A stretch of DNA of 64,000 nt from Tubulanus polymorphus (Eukaryota > Animalia > Nemertea): NCBI RefSeq assembly GCF_964204645.1, contig NC_134027.1, positions 7,162,485 through 7,226,484 on the forward strand, given 5' to 3'. The notes beneath the pieces were generated by a model. The model was not told the origin of the DNA. It did no database searches and worked only from the letters and a program-made list of their open reading frames with translations. This document shows positions 30,011-45,800 of the stretch, one piece after another. How positions within the stretch are numbered: position 1 is the first letter of the stretch; the number at the start of each line of letters is the position of its first letter. Made by a program: the position numbers and the translations under genes.

Positions 30011-32299
30011 ATGGCGGCGCCCATAGAGAACGAGGAAGTGAAAAATTATCCCAGTATTTGTGAAATAGAAGCCTCCGTTGCGACTGGTTTCGAACGCGTC
30101 GCTAAAGAAGAGATAGAAGAAAAGTTAAAAGTTCCTGTGAAACCATTTAGAGGCAATGTCGTGTTTACAATTCCATTTGAACACGTGAAAAGGGTACGCA
30201 CTCGGTGCTAGCTTAGACCAAAAGTTGTACTAAGTAGCAAAATATACCACCAGAATGACTCCACAACTGACTTCTATATTTCAATGTATTTTCAACTTCT
30301 GTTATTTCATAGGTATATGAATTGCACGCTGTTGATAATGTGTATATCGTCTTGAACAGATTCAAAGATTTTCCATTTTCAAATGATCTGGTAAACTATT
30401 TCCCTCAATAAAAGATCTAAATAGATTTAGAAATCATTTACGCCATGGTGCTTATAATGGATTATTCTGTAATATTTCAGGAAGAAGCATTAACTCAGGT
30501 TGAGAAATTTGTTTCGAAAATCAACTGGAAGTTGGGACTTGATGTCTGGGGTCAGTTTTTCGAGTTTGCTCACCCAATTTCCCATTTACCTGCTGACGAA
30601 ACGCTGTGGAAAGCTGAAGAATACCAGGAACCTCCTGTCAAAATATCTAAAGTAGATGATGTTGTTCACTCTGATAATGAGACAGCAGAACAAGTTTCCC
30701 CATCTGCGAAACAAGAATCTAAAGCAACTGATCACAAAACACAAAGTGAACCCTGCGAACGTATTGAAAATGTTATGGATGCTGTCATTCATGCAGATGT
30801 AGTTGTGAAAACCAGCGAAAATGGAGCTGCAGGGGATGCCCCTGTCAGAAAAAGTACAATTCCTTATAATCCATCGTTGCCGGGTTTCCGAGCGACCTGT
30901 TATCGAACCGGTAAGAATCACGTGTTTCAATCGATGCAGGCAGCTGCACGGTTTGGTGGTTTAATTCAGGACTATTTCGGATGGAACGTGAATCTAAAGA
31001 ATTTCGATATCGAGGTCGTATTGAACATCAATGATAACGATGTATCGGTTATGATTCCCCTCACTAGAAAAAGCCTACATAGACGAAACATGAGCAACCT
31101 TGGCCCTACTACTCTGAGAGCTACAATTGCTTATAACATGCTCAGGTAAGTTTTCCTCTCATAACAGTATCCAAAGTAGGCCTACATATCACAGTCTTCT
31201 GATAATTTCATTTAATGTTATGTTTATTGGACTACGGTCCTGATGTTGTTCCACAGTGCTTCTAATATTTTCAATTCATTTTGTAGATTGTGTAAGATAA
31301 AGGCTGGGGATGTTGTTTGTGATCCAATGTGTGGCAGTGGAGGAATTCCTATTGAAGTAAGTACATCTACCACTGACAAGACAATGTGTGTCGATTTTTA
31401 TGACCTCACTGCTCAGACATAGGTCAAAAAATAGACTTATCTGGTAAGATCTTGCTTATTTTGAGAATGATTGTTTTATTGTTGTACTGTAGGCTGCAGT
31501 ATGTTGGCCTTCTAGTGTTCATTTAGCTGGTGATATTCATGAAATTGGATGTAATCGAACTGTTCAAAATGTGTGCGATTTGAATGTGCATCGCAAAAAT
31601 CTCAAGAAGTAAGTCAACTGTTGAGTTCCATAGCACTGTTGGCATTTGATTTATAAAAGATATCATAAATTTCAGTATACATTTATTTGCTCTTTAGGAG
31701 TCAAATAAAAGTTGATGTGATGCAATGGGATGTCACTGACCTTCCACTGAAAGATGATGCAGTTGACATATATGTGACAGACTTGGTAGGTAATAAATAG
31801 ATAATTCAGTGGCAGTGCCTGGATTATTGCTACTAGTTGCAAGAGTAGGAACAGACAAATAGAAAGACTTTCTCACTCATCTTTTTCAGCCATTTGGTAA
31901 AAGGCTCGGATCTAAATATGACAACCGTAAATTATACCCAAAAACGTTGAAAGAAATGGCAAGAACATGTAAACGTGAAACTGGAAGGGCTTGTTTCTTA
32001 ACCCAGGATTCTCGAAATTTAATGAAGGTATGGCAACTGAATCTGTAATAGGAATCATTCATTTATTACATACGCTTAAAATTTGAAATTTTCATGGCCT
32101 TATATAACTCTCTTATTGTGTTTAACAAAACAATATGTACATCTAATGAATATCGCATTCCTCTCTTCAGAGTCTTGGTGCTCTAGGACATTTATGGAGA
32201 CGTGTATTTATGACCGGCATCAATATTGGAGGACTAAGTGCAACTGTCACCGTTTTACAGCGGACTAAAAACTATTTCACAGCAACGGATAAAGACTAA
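30011..32299 (+). CDS. THUMPD3: THUMP domain-containing tRNA m2G methyltransferase; multi-exon
   Basis: ASVATGFE..AKEEI; FRATCYRTGKNHVFQS; FDIEVVLNI; SLHRRNMSNLGPTTLRATIAYNMLR; VCDPMCGSGGIPIE; LPLKDDAVDIYVTDL|PFGKRLG. Stop TAA at 32297-32299. Confidence 0.93.
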
Positions 32300-34116
32300 T
32301 CATAGTTGCATTAATGTGTAAAGTGAAATCATATGAATAGTGTAAGAATTTTGTATTAAAAGATTATAAACAATCTTTATGATAAAGAAACAATAGATGC
32401 CTTGTTATGCTTGGATTGGATATACATGTATCGATCATGAGGATAAGACATCCCTTCCATTATCCATAGATAAGTGATCATTATGCTATCATTATTCTCT
32501 TTGAAACAAAGACAAGAAAAGACGAGGTGTTATGGTGACAACCTGCAATAAATTTATTTACTTGCATCGAAGTGGAATGATATGACTACAAGTAGAAGGA
32601 ACAAGTCGTATAATATTAAATATAAATATTAGTATACAAATTTCAAAAAGATAACTTGTGCTGGAATGTGTTTTTAAGAATGATATCACGACATGTTGTA
32701 AACCTCAGCAGATGCGTAGCTGCGAATCTTATAAATAGCTAACTGGTACATTTGGTTAAATCGGTGCTTTAATTCTAAAAAGCAAGCTACTGATTAAACC
32801 AGTTTAATCCAAGAATTTCATCTGTAGACCTGTTTGGTTATAATTCTGATACCACTTCTAGTAAAAACTGTTTACAGCCTGAATTAATCTAAATTAAAAA
32901 GCTGATGAGAAAAGATTGTCATAACTTACGACTTTTTGCACCACACTTGACCAGTACTGTTTAATTCTTAAGAAATATAAGGCCCCTAAAGTCTTTCACT
33001 TAAGTTTGGTTATCCATGGAGGCTTTCCACTAATAGCGAGAATGATATTATTGTTTAATTTGCAAGATATATCATAAGTGAACTATTCATGAGCAGAGAT
33101 CAATTTAAATGAAAACATATCTACAAATTATTTTGGAATTATAGATAAAATAGGCCTCTACTTGTAAGGGAATGTTGTACCACCACATGCATACACGTAA
33201 ATGAATGTATATAATACTATGCTAAAAATCTGCACAATCAATTTGTAAAATCATGTATAATATTGATTACCAAACTACCGAAAAACCCATGAATACACAC
33301 GAATACAAAATAGAGACTACGCTGAAAAAATATTTACATCAGACAGGAGACATTACTGAATAAATATCAATTAAAAATATAAACATATACATAATCTGAT
33401 GAAAAGAAACGTAACTTATTCGTTATTCAAATCTTGAAAAATTAATTCATACAAACATCGGTACATTCACCTGCATACTTTGTCAATACTTTGGATTTGG
33501 ATCATTTAACTAGGAAAAGCCTTTTCCCATATTTATAATCTAACATCACTTTTATTTTTTCATATTCACACAATGAATTAATGTAACTAACATGAAAGAC
33601 ACACATTGCCTATAGGTAAATCATTATATCTTAGTACATGTAATAAAATTTAACAAATTCATTTGGTTGTAATTTTGATAAATAAAACACCCTGTCTACC
33701 ATCTTATCAAACGGACATGCCATGCGATGTCCATTTTGAATATAGCACGACTATTCTTCATTAAGAATTGTGGTGGGATTTACATAATTTTTGGCACAAC
33801 AACAAAATTAGGATGGATGCGTACAGTATATAAAAGTTATTTAGAACGAAAACATGCATTGTGTATAATTTTGGTTGGTGTAGATATATATAAGGATAAA
33901 TAGATGCACCATTATGTGGACGTATATATCAATGAATACTCATCATTCAGGCTAAACAATGCCTGAAGATCTTCATTAGTTTTTACAGTACAAGAATGAA
34001 TTAAGTATTTAAGTATTAAAGAACTCAAGCACTTTGATAACAATTACTTTCCTAAGTCTGACAATACTAGGTTTTTAAATACCGGTACTACTAATTACTA
34101 GAAACCTGATATTTCT

Positions 34117-37100
34117 CTAAACAATACTATTCAGAAGTCGGAGACAGTAGTTCCGATCATTAATCCAACTATCTCGTTTCATGGACAGTTCATCATAGTG
34201 ATCAGAATCTGCCTGTATACAAGCACCAATGTACGCCGCGTGATAACGGTTTGGCATCGCGTGAACTTCCACTACGCACGACTCTGGCGTCATCTTCTCT
34301 ATTTCATACTGAATACGATCAGCTAATCCCGGCAACATGCTTCCACCTCCACTCAGATAAATACTTCTGTAAACACAAAAACGACACTAAACAAATTGCC
34401 TTATCATCCAGTTGCATAAATATAATTAAACGTTCATTTTACCTGCACAGTTCTCGCCTTGTGTCCATAGGACATTCCTGTATGGCTTTATAAATCACTT
34501 TGTGCAAATATGGTAGATCTAGACCCCAAAGTTCAGTTTCAAATAGACCCTCCGTAGCAGTGAATCGACCAACATCAAGGGAAACATCACTAGTGTAGTA
34601 AAATTGACAAAGTTAAGGCATAAAGGATTCTGAAGTTTAGCTACTCGAATCAAGTCAACATACCTCCAAGTTTTATACGGAAGATCATATTCCGATAGAT
34701 CAACACTTCTTTCATATTGATCTTGATTTTTGCAACCATTTGACAATTCTTCCGCAAAGTTCTTGGACACAAAACATGTCTAGGTAAAATCAAAATATTA
34801 ATTACGGAACAAAAAGCATTTCTTCATCTAAAAAGTGACAAATAATCGCGCTGACCTTCTCCATCACAAGTCTGCTGAGCAACTGTTCAACTGGCACCAA
34901 AAATCTATATTTATTTTCAGCTAGGTTTTGGTTTAGAGACTCCATTATTTTTGCTCCTCCAATCGGTTGCCTTGTTAATCCACCAGCCATTAAGTATCCT
35001 GTAAGTAAGACATGAAGAACTAGTGTCATATAAAATATTTCTTTGTACTGCTCTTAGAAGCAGCAAGGGTAAATATATACATAAACCAAATATCAAGACC
35101 ATACACTACATGTGTATCGAAAACTTCCCAAGAAAACTAATTCTGTCAACAGATGGTTGGATGGACGTCGGACAAAAAGTGAACATAAAGGTCTACTGGG
35201 ACTGAAGTCCCAAGTTGGCAAAAGCAAAACGTTTTTCATAACCTACCATCAATTACAGGTAGGACATCATATCTATCACCGATGTCTACGACAATACCAG
35301 ATTTTGCTCTGTATGCATGTAGAGCCAGGACTGCTTGATGTGCAATTTGAACACTTTGAATATGGAACTTGTTGAATAGTGTGTCCATCATTATCTCAAG
35401 TGCTTTGGCATTCATCTGATGCGGAATACTTAGCATGACCTGAAATTCAAATTGTGAGTACCGATATCACAAAGAGAAAGGAAAAATACATTGCACATTA
35501 AATTGCAATTACAACAATTTCTCATTCTTACTTTATACTGAGAGGTTTCAATGTCCAATTGTTCAAACAGTAGATCAACAAATCCAGGTATAGTTTTAGC
35601 AGTGAGCTAAAATCACAAAAAATCTATGTTTACATGATATGACAATAAGAATTCTACCAGTACCCTATGTCATATGACATTTCAGTTGATATACCAGGTA
35701 ATGCAAAACTAAACAAATCTACCTCATTGAATTTCAATGATGGCCTTAGAGGATAAACCACATCAGCAAAACGCCTCGAATTTGGTTTAAATGCATCAAA
35801 TCCATACACGATACTGTTCGATTTTTTACTGATTGCCGCTACAGTTGGGAAGAACAAAGTTGGAAGAGAAGCTAAAAGAAAAATTGGAGGAATTGTAAAA
35901 ATTCATTCTTAAATTTCCATGGAGATATTTCATTAAGAAAGAGCTATTTTAACGTTTTTTGATTATCTCACGTACGTTGATCACCCAGCACACCAGCCCT
36001 TATTGACGCACTACCAATGTCAATAATGACAATCTTCTGAAACAATTAAAAGCTACAGCTTTCAGACTCTGGATTCAAACAGAGAGAGAAACATAAGCGG
36101 AACATATACTAACCTTACGTCCGTGAGACTTAGGATTTAATACTGGTCGTACGAACCTCATCTTCGCATTATCAACAGTTTGTGAATTCAGCGCGGTCAT
36201 CCATTGTTCTTGATCCTTTTCGGAGGCACATCTGACAACTAAGTAATGACCTCTCTGGAATAGAAAAAGATTTGGTGATATCCCAATAGCAAGGGTTCAG
36301 CTTTAGAGCCAAATCTAGCTAATAACTTTGAAACTGGCTTCAGATGAAAATAACCTAGATGAATGCAATATTGAAACCTGATACACCCAAGTGATGCTTG
36401 CTTACTAACCCGGTCGTCGATTCCGATAAGTTGATAACCATTATCTTCAATTACTCCACCCATAAGTTGTATATGTCCAACTTCAATATTACAATTACTA
36501 GACTAGAGTTTATACAAAATAATGTACACAGTGTTAGAACCAACTTGGACACAATAGAATTCATTAAGAACAATTAATAAACAAAATTGCTTACTTCAAA
36601 GAAATATAAGAAACCATCTTTCGCTCGGAAAAATTGCTTTCGCCATGTTTTCAAAAGTGTGGCCTTTTTTTTGTTCGCTGGAAGCCTCTCAAGTACGCCT
36701 TCTATATTTATATAATGCTTTGACACATCCACAATATTCTACAGAAAACAACAAATTAGTGGTCTCCTGTATATACCGGTAAATCATATAAATCTATTGA
36801 CTACAAAACCCTTACTATGAACATACCTCTTCAAAATGCTTTACTTCATACAGTTCCTTTAAAAGCTTAATCTAAAATACATCAATATGTTTCAATGATA
36901 AACTTTATGTATATCTGAAAATTGCAATGAATACTGTATCTGACAGGTGTAATGGTGTGGTGACTATAAACCAGAAATGGACCCCATCATTTAAAAGTGG
37001 AAATGGCATGCTTACTGGATCCCAGTTGATAACTGATGGTCTGTCTTCAACCTTTTCATCTTCATATTCATCGGTAGACAGAGTATCGACGGTAATTTCA

Positions 37101-38889
37101 GTGACATTCCTATCATCTGTATTGCTTTCACCAATTGGGGGATCTTTCAAGATATGATTCACTTCGAAATGTGAAGAGTTATCTACAACATCATCACCAA
37201 CTACAGCATTCATGACAGAACTATTTCCTGAATTGTCCACAACTGAAAATGGAAAATAGGAAAAGTGAATCAACTAAGATGAGTACGCTATTTATTAAAC
37301 TTCCAGATGTACACAGTTTGATACTCACTGCTAAGAGAGTTTAACTGTATTTCAACTTTGCATTGTGAATGAGAATCTGTGTCCTTTTTTTTCGAAGAGA
37401 CATCATTTCCCTCATCCACACCCTCTATATTCTTATTGGTTAAAGACTTATCCTCCTCCGATAATGACACATCACAGCTGGTTTTCGGTTGCGGAGTTTT
37501 CCTCAGATTTATCGTGAAGGTATTATCATCTTGAAATGTCAATTCCCTCGAAGATGGTTTCGTTGTTGCCCGCGGCGATGAAGCAGTTGCTGAATTGTTA
37601 ATACTATTGGATGACGCTTGAAAGACCACGTTTGGCGAATTTGAATTTGGTGTATCCGATTTTCTTCGCATTATCCCCCACGGTGTTTGGAATCCATTTT
37701 GATCAGACAGGTTGTTATCAGAGACATTTTTTGGGGTGAGCGACGTCACGGAAGAATTCAGTTTTGGCGTCAGGGAACTCTTACTAGTATTTTGCGTTTG
37801 AGATTGCGAAGGTAAGGAGGCCGTTGATGAACTTTTCTTAATCGATCCAGCTGAGGCATAACTCACCAAATTGTTATGGCTCTGAGTGCCTTTCAACGAA
37901 GCTTGTTGACTGCATTCAGCGTTTCTAACGATCCATGAATCAGAATTTTTCTTTCGAGTACCAGCTATACCAGCATTTCTATTTTCAAAATCACTTCGCT
38001 GAAGCAAGAATGTATAATAATAATAGTTTAAACCGGTAATATGTATAGAACCAACTACATAGAAAATTTATAACGAATTTATTTGACAAAAATTAAAATC
38101 AAAAGACATTTAGAACTCTCACTAGAGATCATCACTCAAGAGATCATTGTATTTAAGCAAACTCAAATGATGGCAAAAAACTATTAGCCTATTCTAACCA
38201 GGTGAGACGAGAAAATACACAATATCCATGTAAGATGATAATGAGAGAAATCCTACAATAGATACAGCCAAAACGAGAAACTTGAATAGAAGAGTATATA
38301 TATTTTCGCATCATTTCGGCTAAAGACTATTAGCCATCATCAGTATGCCTGATGATGGCTAATAGTCTTTAGCCGAAACGTTGCGCAAATATATATACTC
38401 ATCTATTCAAGCTTTTTGTTTTGGCTGAATTTACTGTGGGATTTCTCCTTTCGTTTTCTAACCAGGTCTATTCACATGAAATGTCAGCCTACCCGATTGA
38501 AACAAATTTGAGTTTTCTCCAGAAGATCCTTAATCTTGTCATGTAATTCTCCGATGGAATGATATTCGGGTGAATTCTCATCAGTTATTTGGTCATTCAT
38601 GCGCGCAAATTCCTCCTGATCTTTCGTGATTTCATCTTCCAACGTGGATATTATTGCAATCAGATCCTAAAAAAATGAAGGTCAATGGCTCTCAAATCAG
38701 TCTTGGCAACGATACTTCCATCGAAAAGTTTCAGTAATATCCATGTATATGCAAGCATAAAGCTGGAGTTCCTATACTTTCGATACCCCAATCAGGGTTC
38801 ATTTCACAGATTACCTGCATAGCCATATACTTGACCGACTTGGTGAAATCAGACAGATTGCATGTCAACAGTTCAGGTGGACAAGTCAT
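34117..38889 (-). CDS. Uncharacterised multidomain protein: N-terminal helical segment + Ser/Thr-rich linker + PH domain + divergent actin-like domain (~16 coding exons)
   Basis: PH (~36114-36738): IEGVLERLP...KTWRKQFFRAKDGFLYFFE...YLVVRCASEKDQEQWMTALN. Actin fold (34117-36036): IVIIDIGSASIRAG, QAVLALHAY..SGIVVDIGD, YLSGGGSMLPGLADRIQYEI, AAYIGACIQA. The junctions checked, from the start through the PH-actin join, are phase-compatible. Confidence 0.82.
38204..38455. mobile_element. Palindromic insertion (arms 38245-38343 / 38349-38447), probable Penelope-like element terminal-repeat inversion
   Basis: ~100-bp inverted arms flanked by the 12-bp direct repeat ttctaaccaggt (38192-38203, 38456-38467). 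Contains CTGATGA...GAAACGTT. Confidence 0.7.
38346..38385 (+). ncRNA. Minimal type I hammerhead ribozyme-like motif
   Basis: UGC-CUGAUGA-U-GGCUAA(UAGUCU)UUAGCC-GAAA-CGUU-GCG: conserved core boxes, 6-bp stem II, palindromic AACGUU in place of stem III, 3-bp stem I. Confidence 0.55.
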
Positions 38890-39101
38890 CTGAAACCAAG
38901 ATAGATTTATTCTCTATCATATAGTGGCATACATGAAATGATTGATTGTTGAACGAAATTCATATGACAAAAAAAAAATTTTTTTGTAAGATCAACTCAA
39001 GAAAAAGTTTTTTGTGACTGTCCTTTTTGAAACATTTTTATAAATTTGTCCTGATGAAGAGTTGTTAGGAACACACACGTCAATTTTCAATACCAAAGTA
39101 C

Positions 39102-39241
39102 CTTAATGTAATATCGGCTATGCCCTTCGTTCGATTGATTATTGATTCTGTATCAATACATGGGTCGATATTTCAACCAATTCGATCATTTTGATCGTCC
39201 GCCATTTTGACCGAGTATGTCATGTGACATAGGTGGCAGCA
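39102..39241 (-). promoter_or_regulatory. Probable non-coding first exon/promoter of the PH-actin gene, with uORFs, YY1-like AAAATGGCGG, E-box GTCATGTGAC and a CTCF-like site (39230-39241)
   Basis: Donor AAG|gtactt at 39101. All ATGs in this exon end in stop codons. The main ATG directly follows the next acceptor. Confidence 0.5.
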
Positions 39242-39882
39242 GCGGATGGACTTGAATTTGCGGACCGGGAAACGGACAGGTGAGCTTGAATGATTCGCTC
39301 CTTCGGTATCGCAACTTCGTAACGCCGGCCGCGACTCGTTGCACAATGCGGAGTTGAATGATTAAATATACATTTGATTTTTTTATAGAAAGTTAACCCC
39401 GGATCACATGAACGATATTTTCCTTAGATAGAAGTGGTTACATGCGCCCAATAATTCATAGAACAATTCCACCAACCGCGCGGAATTAGTGAATTCCAAT
39501 CCTCCGGGCCCGCACGTGTTCAATGTGTAGCAGATAATCATTTTCCATGTTAATTGAATAAAGACTAAATAACTGGATACACAAAACCACATACATGTAT
39601 ATATTTTCATAAATTTCATAATCAAAATTCAAAACATACAAAAATAGTGTAATTCTCTTAACCGAATAAATTGGGCCGTACATAATTTTGTCTTTTAAGA
39701 GAAATTTAAGAGGATTAAATATGTACATCACAAGTATTGTATATCAAAGCAATCAAACAATTGATTTTTCCTGGTGATGAAATCCCTTTCATCACAGTCG
39801 ATATTATCAATAACCGTAACAAGATATGTGATGAATTAGTCTCACACGGTGAGAATGTAATAACATGTCTTTGTAGTTATAG

Positions 39883-42800
39883 TTACAAAGCATTCACATA
39901 CGGTGATATTAAATCAGGATCTAATAATGAGTCTTGCAATGGAACATCTATATTAAAATCGTGTGCTTGTTGTATCTGCCGCAGTTTCTTACTTCTCTGT
40001 GGTATTGGTAATTCAGAATGATGTGCAGGCAGTGGTTCCGTAAAAAAGTAGGGGTGAAGCAGCGCCTGACAAAATAAATTCATTTCATTCAATTAGATTC
40101 AGATTTTCGATAGGAAAATCATCTATTCATATATAGAAAGCAGTTCTTCACTCAATGATGGACTCTGAAACAAAGTCCATGATTTAATGTTTTAATCGGC
40201 ACATCGCCTTTACTCCAAGGTTGGATTAAGAATTCAAATAATGTCCGCATAGATTTATGCATTTCTCAGATCTAAAACGAATTCTATCCTAATTAGCCGT
40301 GCCAAATCTATGATTTTATGATATTCCTTGCTTATAATATAAAAACAGCTTTACACCTATTGTTATTCATTGTCATAAACAGTAAACAGCCATAAACAGC
40401 CTTAGTGAAGTCCAGGTTATGAGATATTATGAATAGTAGCAGTCATTCATTCCTAACCCAATTTTGAGCCAAGAGAGTGTTCAAATGGACCTTATATCAA
40501 GCTTGTGAAGTACTGAAAAGGTAGGTAGGAAACTTGGAATATCCGATAGTGAACATGTGAATGTTTGAAAGTTCTTCTGCGCATTAGTAACCACAATTCA
40601 TAATCTTATTACCATAACAAGTTAGATTTTGATCTGTGAACACCAGATAATATAATGTATTCTACCTAATATACGTAGCAGGCAGTACTATGGTACTTTA
40701 TTAATTATATACACAATCAGAAAACACTGCAGGAACAATTTTCAATAATTTTCAGCCACATTCGAGACACACGCCAAGTCTCCATGGAAACTCATTAAGT
40801 GTAAATCAGATATATAATATACACGGGGGTCATTCATTTATAACGTATGCACTAGGGGAGAGGGAAGGGTCAGTGCAATTGTGTACTGTTATGCTTAATG
40901 TATATGAAAAAATTACCGATTTTGCGTACAGAGGGGGAGGGGGGTTGAAAAATTCAAATTTTATGCATCCGTAATAAATGAATGATCTCACACAGCTATA
41001 CACTGATTCATTATTTTTCATTGTTCATTGAACTAACATCGATGTCATATACCAAATACAAAGTAGATTTATGGTGAATATAGTGCCAGGAAGTTAAATG
41101 TTTCAATGCTTTGCTTTGAACAGTTTATCTTTGGTGAATGATTCAGATGCACCATTTTAGACGTCTATGCTTGACATCGATATCGCTGGGGAGCATATTG
41201 ATCTTACCTCGTTAGCAGAAATTCTCTGTTTGGAAGGATACACTAGAAATCGTTTTAGTAAGTCTAATGCAACTGGTGACGCGTCCGGGACAACCTCCTC
41301 AAATGGTATCGGTGGTTTCTCTGTGTAACCTATCTTATGATAGTCTGGTAGTTCTGACAATCCCTAGAAAATGAAGTCTGAATGTAGGGTCTAGGTTTAT
41401 AAATCTGTACTTGGGATTGATTCTGAGAACATTTCCTAAGGACAGCTTTTTTGCTAAAGGTTATCGTTATCTGCAGTATGATGATTTAAAGATATGATTC
41501 CGATATCATCCGGTGTGGGTAGTGATCTAATACTGTTAACATGTCAAGATGTACATCATGCATATCTAATTAAGTTCACACAAACAATAACTGTACGCTG
41601 TTATAATAAATAAACGACTGGTGAAACTAATGAATATTTGAAATACTTGATGTATTTCACATTGTGCAAACACTACTTCATACATTATTCATACAAATCA
41701 CTGATGAGAAATCATTGTTCAAACAGTCAATCCCTAAAGATTATATAATATTAGTTAAAGGGTAAAACAACAGAGAAAGTGGCTGAAAACATACCAATGA
41801 AATTGAAAGTTCTTACATGTATTACGAATTTTTCAAATTTTAGATAGGCTCTGATGTTTGCAGCATCGTATCATTCATCATTCAATTTTTTCAATAATAT
41901 TTCCACTCCAGATACTCACTGGCCATATTTTTTCATTTGGAGTGCCCAATACCCGTAATACACAACCAAGCTGATCAATATCTGTTTCACCCTGAAAAGG
42001 AAAAGATCCTGTACATAGATTCACATCAGTCAACCTGACGACAGATGACAGTACTTTGTAGGTTCACTTGAATTTATTAATAATAATAATACCAGGCATC
42101 GGGTAAAGCTGGTTTAGTTACTATACAGTAGTATTAACAAAAGCTCATATTTTAATAAAATTTGGTATATATCTGTCTTTATATTTACTGAGTTGATATC
42201 AGGTTAATGTGGCTCCTCCATGACTGTTCACACCAGTTCACCTAATATTATACTGGATACTCGATCTAGATCTGTATACTACTGTTACCATGATCGGCAC
42301 CAGGAATCGAGTACGTAATATTTAACTAAAATTGCCGAAGGGCGGAGCCTGCTCGGGTGTGGAACGCATAAAAATTGCTGGCCGAGGCTGGATTGTGACT
42401 GCTGACGACACATTGACGTACCCCCCTCTGGTGTCGCCCATGGTTACTTGTATATTACAGGTCAACAATGATCATAGAACCACCCCTTCATCTAAAACCG
42501 TTTTTTTGTTGTCATATCATGTCAAACTACACTAGAACTGATGTCCACTTGGTTTTATACAAAATAATGCTAGGATTTCCATACACCATTTCCTTGAGCT
42601 TTCTTGTTATAGCTAGAAAACACCAGAACACACCAGCGGTGAAAAACTATCTGCGTTTTAACTCTTATCAGAGAAAGGAGTAAGGTTTTTCAAGTTTGAG
42701 CCGTGGAAAACTGCTTATCTCAAAGATACTCTTTATCTGGTGTAACGAGATAGTTTTTTACATCATTGTAGTATTTGTAGCAGAAAACTCCTCGAACAAC

Positions 42801-45800
42801 AGTATCGACAGATTTACATCTTTCAAAAGAGGAGCTATGGTTCAAGTCTGTAAAACTGCGTAGAAATTTACAATCGTTGTTAAGCTCTTCTATACCACAA
42901 GGAACATATACCCGGTAATCGGAGATTCTCTAAACTGAACAAAAGCGCGAAGCAATGAATCCTCAGTGAGCCTCAGACAGAGCATTGCTCCAATCGCCTG
43001 AATCTGATAAAGGGAATTGTCCTCAATGAAGTCTACATGTGAAGAAGAAAAGGACAAATTCTAATTTCTTGGACTAATAAATCCAGTCATGTTTTCTGTA
43101 CATTTATGGAATATGATTGAAAATAGAAGTAAGATTTAAGCATATTTCTCCATATACTTTATTGACATTCAAACTAGTGAGTTTGTGTTAATCTGTGTTA
43201 TTCAATTTTTACGTGACTTAATAGCCAAATAGTTCAGATAGTCTTAGCCTAGGCATGTACTTGTGAACAATTTGTTTTGGTTACAAGGATTTTTGAAATC
43301 ATATCTTATAACTAAAGCATTTCGTGTTTGAGTTGGAGACATATATAGTGATAAAACTTACCGGAAAAAGGGGTGAATTGTTCAACAGTTCCCCAAATAT
43401 GCATCCGACTGCCCTAGAAATATTAGAAAAATAGAAAAATGTCATAAAAATCTTCATAAGTTGTTCAAATAATCGTAAAGATGAAGTGGAACATTTATTC
43501 ATGTGTATTTTTTTTATGTTACTTAAATGTTAACTCATTCCTGAAGTGATATAACATTTGTACCGTCTACAAAATGAAAGTACCTGGGGGTGATTTGTAC
43601 AAAATCTGAGAACAAAACCATATTGTTCTAAACAGGTTTAGGAATGACCTAGTTACTTATACAAATTGAATGAACTATTTATAGCTAAGAATTTATGTCT
43701 TGTCCATAATGCCATTATAAATGTGAATGGTGATCGGTGTAGTTTTCTGACTTGTAGACCGACGACACTAGTTCAACTCGAATCCGTATGAAGGCAGTGC
43801 CTCTGAGTGTCGCACTGAGATAATGTATTCCTGCTGCTGATGTTGTGCTGCAGTTGCTGAGGTAACGGTGCGAGATGCATCATATTTACACACCATCATC
43901 AAACATGACAACATTTTTGTTCAATGGATTCACTATACACTCAGATATGCACAGCGGATCTATAACCATGGACTCAATCAGTCGGAATAATTATTCCAAA
44001 ATTCACTCACCAGCTTAAATTCTGGGTAAGCTATGGCAGCAGTTTTTGTGTTGAATAATCTAAGACAAGACTAAGACTGCTTAAGAAAATCATTTGAAAC
44101 TTGATTAATTGTGTGTTTGAAGAATCAATGAACAATATGCAATAGAACTTGGCATTGAATTATTTTCATATTTACAAATAGTATTATGATCCCATGTAAT
44201 AATGTCTCGCGGTTAACTTATTTGGATGCAAATCATCTTCAAGTTCACATGTTCTACATACATGAATAGTGCAGAACTCAACTTATATATACCGATAGAC
44301 TATCAAATCAATAATTTCATTATCATACTTAAGTCTAATCAACTTTTTTTGGGGATTTAGATAATTAACTGCAGCAAGGCCTGTCAATTCGGCCTGAAAT
44401 GAAAAACTATCCAGTATTATTGTCAGCCCATCAGCAGAACTTCAAGAATATCTAAAATTGTCATGTTGTACCGGTTGCATGCTGAGGGGAGAGGGTAGGC
44501 GGATGATATTATCATTCAGCGTCCCCTGGTGAACAGTAAGCAATGACATTGAAACTCTGAACCCCCTAAATACAGGCCTGGGCCTACTGATCAGGGGAAT
44601 CAGGGATCTGGATATGGCGTGTTCAAAAATTACATAATGCATCAGGGGGTGAGGGGTCGTGTCTTACACATTTTGTTACAGCTTGTTACAGGGGGAGGGG
44701 GGTGTCAGTACATCTGTTACATAACAAAACACATGGAAATCTCAGAAGGATGAAATTCTTCATAATACCCTTTGAACTATAGAATATGCTTGAAACAATA
44801 GCTGAACTATATATTGAACTTAAACCTTCTGACAATAACTTACTTATTTACAACAACACTAAGAGTCCTGACCACTGACGGCAACATGAACTTTAAACAT
44901 TTATTTAAACGACCAGAAACTAATCCTCATCTTCCCATTGAGGTAATCCATCATTAATCATTAATCGCGTACAGGGCCTCCTGCTTCAACTCGTAATGGC
45001 TGGGGCTCCTATGGGAGGGGGGGGGGGGTATTTGATTTTGTTACATAATATTTAGGGGGGTGACGGGGGTGTCTAAATTTCCCCAAAAATGTGTTACGTA
45101 ATTTTTGAACAGCCCCTAATAAATAGACCTAAATCATTTTTACCAGCTTGAAAAAGATAAAGATTTCTGACTCTTTTCTTGGAACTTTTTGGTGCCCTTC
45201 TTGATGTTCTTGTTATTCATGAGTGACTGATAAGTAAGGCTTTGATACACAAACACGTAACAGATATTGGTAAGAAACCTGTTTGTACGTGATAATCTTT
45301 CTGTCCCTACGATCCTTTTACAAACAAGTGCTTTGTATGCAGCCAGTGAAAATGACCCTTTTTAAAATATCTAAGTCTTTCTTCTCAAAAGTAAAACTTA
45401 TTCTACAATTTCTGCTGCGTAGATCATATCTAATATTCAAACCTTTTTCTGCAATTTCTGGAATACAGATTCGCCCTTAATCGTAAGTGCCCCCTGGCTC
45501 CTGAATCAGGCTATTTATTAGTGCAATAGGTTTTCGCATAAAATTGTTCTCCTAGATCAATAATAAATATGAAATATTTTACCTAAAATCAATAAAATTT
45601 ATCAATTAGTGCCAATGATCACAATAGGTTGTGTCTACCATGCAGTAATCTCTAATTAATTGCTCCTCTGACAGTGTCTACCATCTGTAGTTTCTTATCT
45701 GAATATTAACCTATAAGGGCTTGTCTTACTCTTATCATCTTATCCAGAGAAAAAGAAGATTGTGTTAGGTATGGAAATCAAATCATCTTTTATCCTCTAT

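Follow-up and report, generated by a model that had tools for sequence, protein, structure and literature searches.

The conserved actin-related proteins (Arps) are usually counted as Arp1-11, and others are treated as young and germline-specific. Arp4-Arp9 act as platforms in chromatin complexes, and C. elegans has a separate arp-11. In actin-fusion proteins such as Dictyostelium filactin, further folded domains precede the actin-like one. To our knowledge, Arp11 has no PH domain. In dynactin, Arp11 has lost its subdomain-2 loop (a deletion of 38-57 is reported) and keeps its barbed face better than its pointed face, an asymmetry from which Eckley et al. 1999 predicted that it binds only pointed ends (PMC2174220). 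A study on non-canonical Arps describes them as often young, fast-evolving and testis-enriched; one of them, Drosophila Arp53D, has a divergent actin fold whose targeting is directed by an added N-terminal segment (PMC8291977). The protein studied here, from the nemertean Tubulanus polymorphus, resembles Arp53D in this respect and belongs to a PH-actin family that shows the same loop loss and better-kept barbed face as Arp11. The family nevertheless differs from Arp11 in its shorter D-loop deletion (~7 residues), from Arp53D-type Arps in being older than animals and branching as the species do, and from filactin in its partner domains.

The window, a stretch of 64,000 nucleotides from Tubulanus polymorphus (NC_134027.1), contains the PH-actin gene on its minus strand, with 16 coding exons running from 38889 to 34117. 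Every intron is GT..AG, and the exons join into a 2703-nt frame of 900 aa with 0 internal stops, identical at every residue to database entry XP_074646886.1 (P0001; 'uncharacterized protein LOC141902860', Tubulanus polymorphus). Its parts are the following (X3 is a sequencing run described below).

38815..38889, minus strand: coding exon 1, aa 1-25; opens the N-terminal domain with two short helices; X3 joint 38665/38814
38493..38666, minus strand: exon 2, aa 26-83; antiparallel helical hairpin, kept in many animal members
37329..37998, minus strand: exon 3, aa 84-307; disordered Ser/Thr/Asn-rich linker
37016..37242, minus strand: exon 4, aa 307-382; acidic linker end and start of the WDP motif
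36827..36871, minus strand: exon 5, aa 383-397; WDP amphipathic helix
36595..36738, minus strand: exon 6, aa 398-445; PH strands 1-3, basic beta1-beta2 loop
36410..36502, minus strand: exon 7, aa 446-476; central PH part
36114..36254, minus strand: exon 8, aa 477-523; last PH strand and helix, short link to the actin fold
35976..36036, minus strand: exon 9, aa 524-544; phosphate-1 loop of the actin fold
35723..35871, minus strand: exon 10, aa 544-593; subdomain 2, without D-loop and His73
35532..35606, minus strand: exon 11, aa 594-618; actin fold
35247..35439, minus strand: exon 12, aa 619-683; Gln653 (actin Q137), remodelled phosphate-2 loop (Arg674 at actin G158)
34856..34998, minus strand: exon 13, aa 683-730; actin fold
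34664..34779, minus strand: exon 14, aa 731-769; subdomain 4, insertion relative to actin
34443..34589, minus strand: exon 15, aa 769-818; actin fold
34117..34366, minus strand: exon 16 as far as the stop codon, aa 818-900; adenosine motif, C-terminus
33500..34116, minus strand: 3' untranslated region, running past 33500; 966 more letters of the spliced contig fall outside the stretch compared

All 15 predicted introns are present as CT..AC joints (1 contig each, depth 110.5) in run X3, a single sample that is not on record as RNA and whose evidence consists of contigs, not reads. They include the PH-to-actin joint 36036/36114 (77 skipped), that is, the 36114->36036 junction for which the sequence-only reading had asked confirmation. 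Contig record 17 (4401 letters) explains these joints; it has 710 letters between its exon-12 and exon-4 pieces, against 708 summed over exons 5-11 (+2 register shift). Run X1 covers the stretch unspliced at ~41x and has none of the 15 joints, so that an intronless DNA copy is not indicated as their source. Separate PH and actin transcripts are ruled out by the spliced X3 contig together with the conserved PH-to-actin spacing (17-23 residues in 81/96 members). The PH domain and the actin fold thus sit in one spliced gene, as had been proposed, with all elements at the coordinates foreseen. A further 5' exon probably lies upstream of coding exon 1, because the exon-1 ATG comes immediately after an acceptor-like AG.

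The protein consists of a helical hairpin (1-92), a disordered linker, a WDP helix, a PH domain (409-501) and an actin fold (524-900). AlphaFold models residues 1-90, where a helical segment had been noticed earlier, as a confident helical domain (pLDDT ~95); residues 95-340 and 349-367 come out disordered, and the rest includes both the PH and the actin fold. The linker, first described as ~300 aa of Ser/Thr/acidic sequence, measures 276 aa (95-370) and is indeed Ser/Thr-rich (S+T 27%), but should be called Ser/Thr/Asn-rich (N 11%) rather than acidic (D+E 13%). The profile of HR1, a Rho-binding hairpin (PF02185), gave 20.8 bits (E 0.00039, below the cut-off of 33.1) with the N-terminus of sponge protein P0181 and E 0.2 with a coral protein, and no match in the Tubulanus protein. 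Structural matches to the hairpin were generic hairpins (best Z 10.2, rmsd 1.9, 86 aligned), with no HR1 entry among the 50 listed; neither was there an HR1 chain among the matches listed when solved structures were searched by sequence with the sponge fragment and exon 2. Foldseek with the N-terminal hairpin found no match at E <= 0.001, and an Atlas feature search gave no usable match for its HR1 identity. Prediction, without alignments, of a complex of the hairpin with the WDP-PH-actin module gave no usable answer (score 0.01, mark 0.34).

Pfam detects PH (PF00169) at 409-501 with 28.4 bits (cut-off 25.1) and Actin (PF00022) at 524-885 with 152.4 bits (cut-off 27), which agrees with the complete PH domain followed by an actin fold described by the sequence-only reading. 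In the AlphaFold model, the PH region 409-501 has seven strands and a C-terminal helix, and PH clusters are its nearest look-alikes. Phosphoinositide-binding PH domains have the signature K-Xn-(K/R)-X-R in beta1-beta2. The beta1-beta2 loop of the Tubulanus protein (413-436) is basic (8 K/R, 1 D/E), but the lipid binding deduced from it was overstated: R415 and R430 are present with Q432 at the key Arg, so that the signature is incomplete here, and only 53/97 family members have it in full. The key lipid-binding arginine is absent in all 4 nematode members checked. Before the PH domain lies a conserved WDP helix (380-390; W380 in 89/97 members, P382 in 90/97, L389 in 85/97, Y390 in 89/97). Two members have WDP 35 and 62 residues before the actin fold, too close for a PH domain to fit between, and may represent skipped-exon or mis-called forms.

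The actin fold contains the phosphate-1, phosphate-2 and adenosine motifs. Its best structural match is conventional actin (4pl7_A, 2oan_B; Z 42.4, rmsd 1.7, 342 aligned, 28% identity; Foldseek TM 0.91 by target); nuclear-Arp and dynactin chains reach 16-22% identity and Z 25.6-34.4 in this search, where Arp1 and Arp2 are not listed apart. Dynactin chain 5adx_J, which we take to be Arp11, stands well below actin (22% identity, Z 33.6). In sequence alignment, identity to conventional actin is 25% over 364 columns (family range 23-34%). The Tubulanus protein shares Q137, D154, G156 and G301 with conventional actin but lacks the D-loop, has Pro587 at His73 and Arg674 at Gly158, and bears a fused PH domain and N-terminal arm. 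NCBIfam profiles matched only bacterial actins, below cut-off, and a family fragment searched against solved structures had no match.

In an alignment of 101 family members to one conventional actin, 94-97 of the members have gaps at D-loop positions 40-46. Nucleotide-pocket positions are 52% identical to actin, with Q137 kept in 100, G156 and G301 in 101, E214 in 93 and D154 in 88; G15 is kept in 3, H73 in 10 and G158 in 0 (Arg 75, His 19). By residue set, identity reaches 41% for the cleft/W-loop set of the barbed face and 35% for its subdomain-3 set, compared with 28% overall, 19% at pointed-face 60-65, 17% at inter-strand contacts and 2% in the D-loop. Pointed-face contact residues are partly kept (R62 97/101, E205 as E/D 96/101, P243 64/101), as are those of the barbed-face cleft (Y143 82/101, T148 69/101, G168 95/101, Y/F169 84/101, L346 63/101, F352 87/101), where Tubulanus departs at several positions (H659, K664, Q869, S872). 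C-terminal C374/F375 are nearly gone (1 and 2 of 101), and subdomain 4 has an insertion (32-33 residues in 60/101 members versus 25 in actin). The loss of the D-loop, set against a retained barbed face and a mostly retained nucleotide pocket, makes for an Arp11-like asymmetry, with a modest barbed-face excess.

The PH-actin module forms a single clade (support 100/99) whose order follows the species tree and which includes choanoflagellates, sponges, corals, molluscs, arthropods, echinoderms and nematodes, with C. elegans F42C5.9; no vertebrate or fly member was seen among those gathered. In trees made of PH-actin rows, actins and one Arp3 row, 29 PH-actin rows lie on one side of the 100/99 branch and the Arp3 row and actins on the other. 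Arp3 matches score ~64 bits with the Tubulanus protein versus 225-576 for other family members; by branch and by score, the protein does not group with Arp3. With WDP helix, PH domain and actin fold in one chain and in the same clade, the Tubulanus protein is an F42C5.9-like family member and not the 'orphan' first supposed, if that means confined to one lineage. Members of the choanoflagellate clade carry added EH, PX or SAM domains, of which EH and PX are typical of membrane traffic. A metagenome scan with a sponge member yielded no locus. The PH and actin domain pair already figures in database annotations; our literature searches, in which subscription journals were mostly not covered, found no paper describing the family, consistent with the earlier statement that no characterised family has this architecture.

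Similarity with F42C5.9 (NP_501169.1, UniProt Q20329) is continuous over WDP helix, PH domain and actin fold (32% identity over 519 columns, E 4e-86). The worm protein has 552 aa and lacks the N-terminal hairpin and long linker present in Tubulanus, as well as the PH basic signature; a Pfam scan did not detect its PH domain at E up to 1. Its PH-plus-actin annotation stands in published tables of 2009 and 2013, as 'Actin-like PH domain' (PMC3651406 Table 7) and as InterPro actin and pleckstrin-like domains (PMC2694363 supplement 6). F42C5.9::GFP is reported in the muscle cell membrane and in filament-like and dense-body-like structures (PMC3096668). The gene is ~2.1-fold muscle-enriched, and myofilament disorganisation was scored on RNAi against it (PMC2694363, supplements 2 and 6); when pore-forming toxins attack, it goes up along with Arp2/3 and ERM-1 (PMC9704757). 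PMC3083401 bins it as nematode-specific and reports an interaction, taken from a database, with the NHL-repeat protein Q03601. The C-terminal GFP fusions used in the worm were over-expressed and the screen phenotypes mild; what was found on F42C5.9 comes from screens, with no account of a mechanism. The worm GFP signal at the muscle membrane favours the membrane targeting first proposed, but the lipid-binding argument for it is weaker than first put, given Gln432 and the nematodes without the key Arg.

Building on one gene with an established domain order, family and residue pattern, the explanation that we favour, at slightly less than even odds (about 0.45), is that the PH-actin protein is a membrane-held, non-polymerising actin mimic that would anchor, cap or seed filament pointed ends at the cortex. 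Because its D-loop is missing, it would not add to a normal filament at its own pointed face, and its conserved barbed face would take the terminal subunit of a filament pointed end, in the manner of Arp11 in dynactin. The PH domain would hold the protein at membranes, via phosphoinositides in full-signature members and via protein contacts or plain charge in Tubulanus and nematodes. Nucleotide would be bound but poorly hydrolysed, and the N-terminal hairpin on its long flexible linker may be a docking site for a regulator. Against capping or seeding, identity is only modestly higher at the barbed face, whose cleft residues may serve folding instead, the D-loop deletion is shorter than that of Arp11, and the single Arp3 row matches 8/17 and 4/12 positions of the barbed-face sets versus 6/17 and 3/12 in Tubulanus. 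Moreover, the retained R62, E205 and P243 fit a non-canonical polymer too, the PH domain is joined at the N-terminus, beside the barbed face, which it could block, Tubulanus has Gln432 and nematodes lack the basic signature, and worm F42C5.9 has no hairpin. A bolder version, an overlooked pre-animal Arp family apparently lost in vertebrates and flies and acting as a single-chain membrane-tethered pointed-end seed with a small-GTPase switch via the hairpin, seems unlikely.

The WDP helix raises a possible, if doubtful, alternative. It is conserved, and residues 381-390 reach pLDDT 98, so that by AlphaFold confidence it would pack on a folded domain. If it occupies the barbed-face cleft of the same chain in the way of an internal WH2 helix, both faces would be blocked. 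The result would be a sealed monomeric scaffold, its actin fold stabilised by nucleotide and acting as platform for a membrane-associated complex, comparable to Arp4-Arp9. Changes at G15, K18 and G158, similar to those of nuclear Arps, agree with this, as do the two members that keep WDP without PH, although these may be the skipped-exon or mis-called forms noted above. The database interaction with Q03601 (PMC3083401) would also suit a scaffold. Against it, a Pfam scan of 20 proteins gave no WH2 match at E up to 1.

Rather less probable is a short, non-canonical membrane-bound polymer of its own, similar to D-loop-less bacterial and archaeal actins. Residues that presumably make the longitudinal contacts of F-actin are kept (R62 97/101, D288 95/101, R290 98/101, E205 as E/D 96/101), but the D-loop is gone, inter-strand positions are 17% identical and subdomain 4 has its insertion. 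The filament-like location of the worm GFP fusion (PMC3096668) would fit such a polymer but may be decoration of ordinary actin. Very improbable, finally, is a decoy role, in which the protein would capture actin regulators of the barbed face (profilin, WH2 nucleators, gelsolin, cofilin/twinfilin) at membranes and adjust actin assembly there, leaving filaments untouched: Y143, T148, G168, Y/F169, L346 and F352, which we take to line the cleft used by these regulators, are kept in most members, but Tubulanus differs at H659, K664, Q869 and S872, and C374/F375, used by profilin, are lost.

The fusion of PH and actin domains has been kept since the common ancestor of choanoflagellates and animals, in a family that seems overlooked because vertebrates and flies appear to have no members. 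C. elegans, through F42C5.9, as well as sea urchin and choanoflagellates offer direct access to it. If its members do seed filaments, they would constitute a class of actin nucleators or anchors that is neither Arp2/3, formin nor tandem-WH2; capping or seeding at membranes would add a new type of link between actin and cortex.

Our analyses show that the uncharacterized Tubulanus polymorphus protein LOC141902860 (XP_074646886.1) joins a PH domain to an actin fold within a single spliced gene, as the sequence-only reading had claimed. The gene and the elements discussed around it are:

34117–38889, minus strand: the studied gene, 16 coding exons read from 38889, with GT..AG introns of 74–494 nt
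38245–38447, in intron 2: inverted repeat of 99 nt, 89% complementary, with a 5-nt loop
39102–39217, minus strand: putative further exon upstream, which has a donor at 39102 and short upstream ATG frames
about 39787–42930, minus strand like the studied gene: upstream neighbour
30421–31422, plus strand: convergent neighbour

The joined exons give 900 codons and a single terminal stop. Exon 16, used as a query, retrieved five proteins among 21 candidates, the best being the 900-aa ‘uncharacterized protein LOC141902860 [Tubulanus polymorphus]’, identical to our model at all 900 residues; a public model of the gene thus already exists, without a functional name. Splicing was checked by comparing four sequencing runs with positions 33500–40000. 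In run X3, a single sample available as contigs and not on record as RNA, all 15 predicted introns appear as CT..AC joints, in one contig each and at a depth of 110.5 among the joints listed, including the PH-to-actin joint 36036/36114. The listed piece positions of a spliced 4401-letter X3 contig agree with the summed exon lengths, so that this one contig holds the exons of the N-terminal hairpin, the PH domain and the actin fold; about 115 of its letters extend past exon 1. Run X1 covers the same region unspliced, with none of the 15 joints there. The intron 2 repeat has a very high summed contig depth in a DNA-like run, as would fit a miniature transposon-like element present in many copies. 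A separate X3 contig terminates at 39787. The upstream neighbour has exons that resemble a CDK20-type kinase; four fragments of it gave no Pfam match. The convergent neighbour, with a THUMP match under the cut-off (E 0.0016) and RMKL-like methyltransferase matches, is probably a THUMPD-type tRNA methyltransferase.

Pfam recognizes both domains of the joined protein, PH at 409–501 (28.4 bits, cut-off 25.1) and Actin at 524–885 (152.4 bits). AlphaFold, run with an 87-row alignment (mean pLDDT 75.6), predicts N-terminal helices at 6–9, 12–20, 24–51 and 58–91 (pLDDT about 95), disorder at 95–340 and 349–367, and a helix at 383–389 (pLDDT 98) followed by the PH domain and then the actin fold. Foldseek matched actin with a TM of 0.91 by target at 25% identity. 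The best of 48,161 representative chains was also an actin (Z 42.4, rmsd 1.7, 342 aligned, 28%), followed by a Leishmania doublet-microtubule chain (37.6), an Arp2/3 chain (36.4, 22%), a trypanosome axoneme chain (35.7) and, lower, Arp4, remodeller and dynactin chains (34.4 and below, 16–22%); the best 60 of 153 sequence matches to solved structures were all actins. The protein is a member of the actin superfamily. Its N-terminal hairpin, predicted with a pLDDT of 89 when modelled alone, is common to many members from spiralians, arthropods, crinoids and corals and occurs in Plectus too. Its fold matches are generic and the N-terminus of a sponge member has an HR1 match below the cut-off. GTPase docking is no more than a lead.

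Proteins of this architecture occur in animals from sponges to echinoderms and in choanoflagellates. Residues 395–900 retrieved 102 matches, 89 of them with PH plus actin on profiles from our own alignment, a partly circular count because 87 are rows of that alignment; the other 13, which lack PH, are Arp3 or Arp4a records. In independent Pfam scans PH was detected in 5/5 members, in 25/25 at E up to 0.01 and, at E up to 1, in 15 of 18 full-length proteins, those of Plectus, Watersipora and C. elegans being missed. With a nematode protein as query, 59 of 60 matches had PH on our own profile. When 1.84 billion representatives were searched exhaustively with a profile, at least 104 of the 150 matches listed had PH plus actin; the others were family members or fragments that lack PH, divergent actins in tandem and, starting near rank 126, chiefly conventional actin fusions. 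Named members come from choanoflagellates (Salpingoeca urceolata, Didymoeca costata, Hartaetosiga balthica), sponges (Halichondria, Geodia, Sycon), corals, Macrostomum, nemerteans, annelids, Lingula, a bryozoan, molluscs, a hemichordate, echinoderms, chelicerates, one myriapod, crustaceans, mayflies, damselflies and nematodes. None of those named (30 proteins looked up by cluster) belongs to chordates or holometabolous insects, where the family was likely lost, bearing in mind that 50% clusters may conceal species and many matches carry no species name. Choanoflagellate-clade members have extra EH, PX or SAM domains, some scoring below the cut-off. P0281 and P0282 lack a PH domain, through loss or exon skipping, so that their conserved WDP helix lies just before the actin fold, and six proteins (P0301, P0302, P0304, P0306, P0310, P0311) carry a tandem pair of divergent actin domains. 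In the demosponge clusters P0073, P0151 and P0090, metagenome gene calls on contigs of up to 446 kb, the whole WDP-PH-actin part lies in one frame, which suggests that it is intronless there, against 13 exons in T. polymorphus. Misleading public names (POTE-like, SETMAR, Arp8 and futsch-like, on P0013, P0016, P0115 and P0179) may be one reason that the family has gone unnoticed.

Trees whose outgroups were Arp3, actins and divergent actins, with long branches that call for caution, place the PH-actin proteins together on the same side of a branch (0.857 in FastTree with 136 actin domains; 100/99 in IQ-TREE with 46 hand-picked sequences under LG+G4 without mixture). The Tubulanus protein is neither a conventional actin nor an Arp3; orthology to the other canonical Arps, which lie outside these trees, is unsupported. 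The starred subgroups (choanoflagellate-type members, animals, bilaterians, protostomes, spiralians, the two nemerteans) follow species order, a pattern that fits vertical descent. Two PH-actin proteins have deep branches, P0295 the lowest and P0299 beside the choanoflagellates; the sister of the family is P0325, a protein that lacks PH.

Across 101 members compared at actin positions, the D-loop is absent in 94–97, Q137 is kept in 100, G13 in 99, G156 and G301 in 101, E214 in 93 and R210 in 95. G15 is kept in three, H73 in 10, K18 in six (Arg in 93), G158 in none (Arg in 75, His in 19) and H161 in two, the alignment there being offset by a one-residue gap. Because nucleotide-pocket residues are partly kept and partly lost, the family likely binds nucleotide, while actin-like hydrolysis appears doubtful. 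With residue sets that we take to represent the faces of actin and its inter-strand contacts, the barbed-face sets are 41% and 35% identical to actin, the pointed-face sets 2%, 19% and 29% and the inter-strand set 17%, against 28% overall. Eckley et al. used the same asymmetry in Arp11 to argue for binding to pointed ends only (PMC2174220).

The reading that we favour, at a probability of roughly 0.45, is that the Tubulanus protein would be held at the membrane, would not polymerize, and would cap or seed the pointed end of filaments. Against it, Arp3 matches the family on the barbed-face sets, the Tubulanus protein keeps fewer barbed-face residues than members do on average, and the retained positions include R62, E205, D288 and R290. 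A sealed scaffold comes behind it as a rather unlikely alternative, a non-canonical polymer appears improbable, and a decoy for actin regulators still more so. The membrane-targeted orphan proposed from sequence holds in part: the literature searched contains no description of the family, but Q432 breaks the PH basic signature of the Tubulanus protein, whose residues 413–436 include eight basic and one acidic. The signature is complete in 53 of 97 members and in none of the four nematode members checked.

The C. elegans member, F42C5.9 (32% identity over 519 columns), has appeared in several studies, the accessible portions of which describe neither the family nor a mechanism. A GFP fusion marked the muscle cell membrane as well as structures that resemble filaments and dense bodies, a result that the authors qualify on account of tags and over-expression (PMC3096668); the gene is 2.1-fold enriched in muscle, and its RNAi left myofilaments ‘disorganized’, the mildest class (PMC2694363). 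Labelled ‘Actin-like PH domain’, it showed a small AQR migration shift in a sensitised background (80% vs 92% posterior; PMC3651406). Its abundance rises after Cry5B (PMC9704757), it is among the matches of an antimicrobial-peptide screen, without functional class (PMC4850687), and it was binned as nematode-specific with a database interaction with NHL-1 (PMC3083401). The pairing of PH and actin domains is already known to databases; what is new here is the reach of the family to choanoflagellates, the asymmetry of its faces and its degenerate lipid signature.
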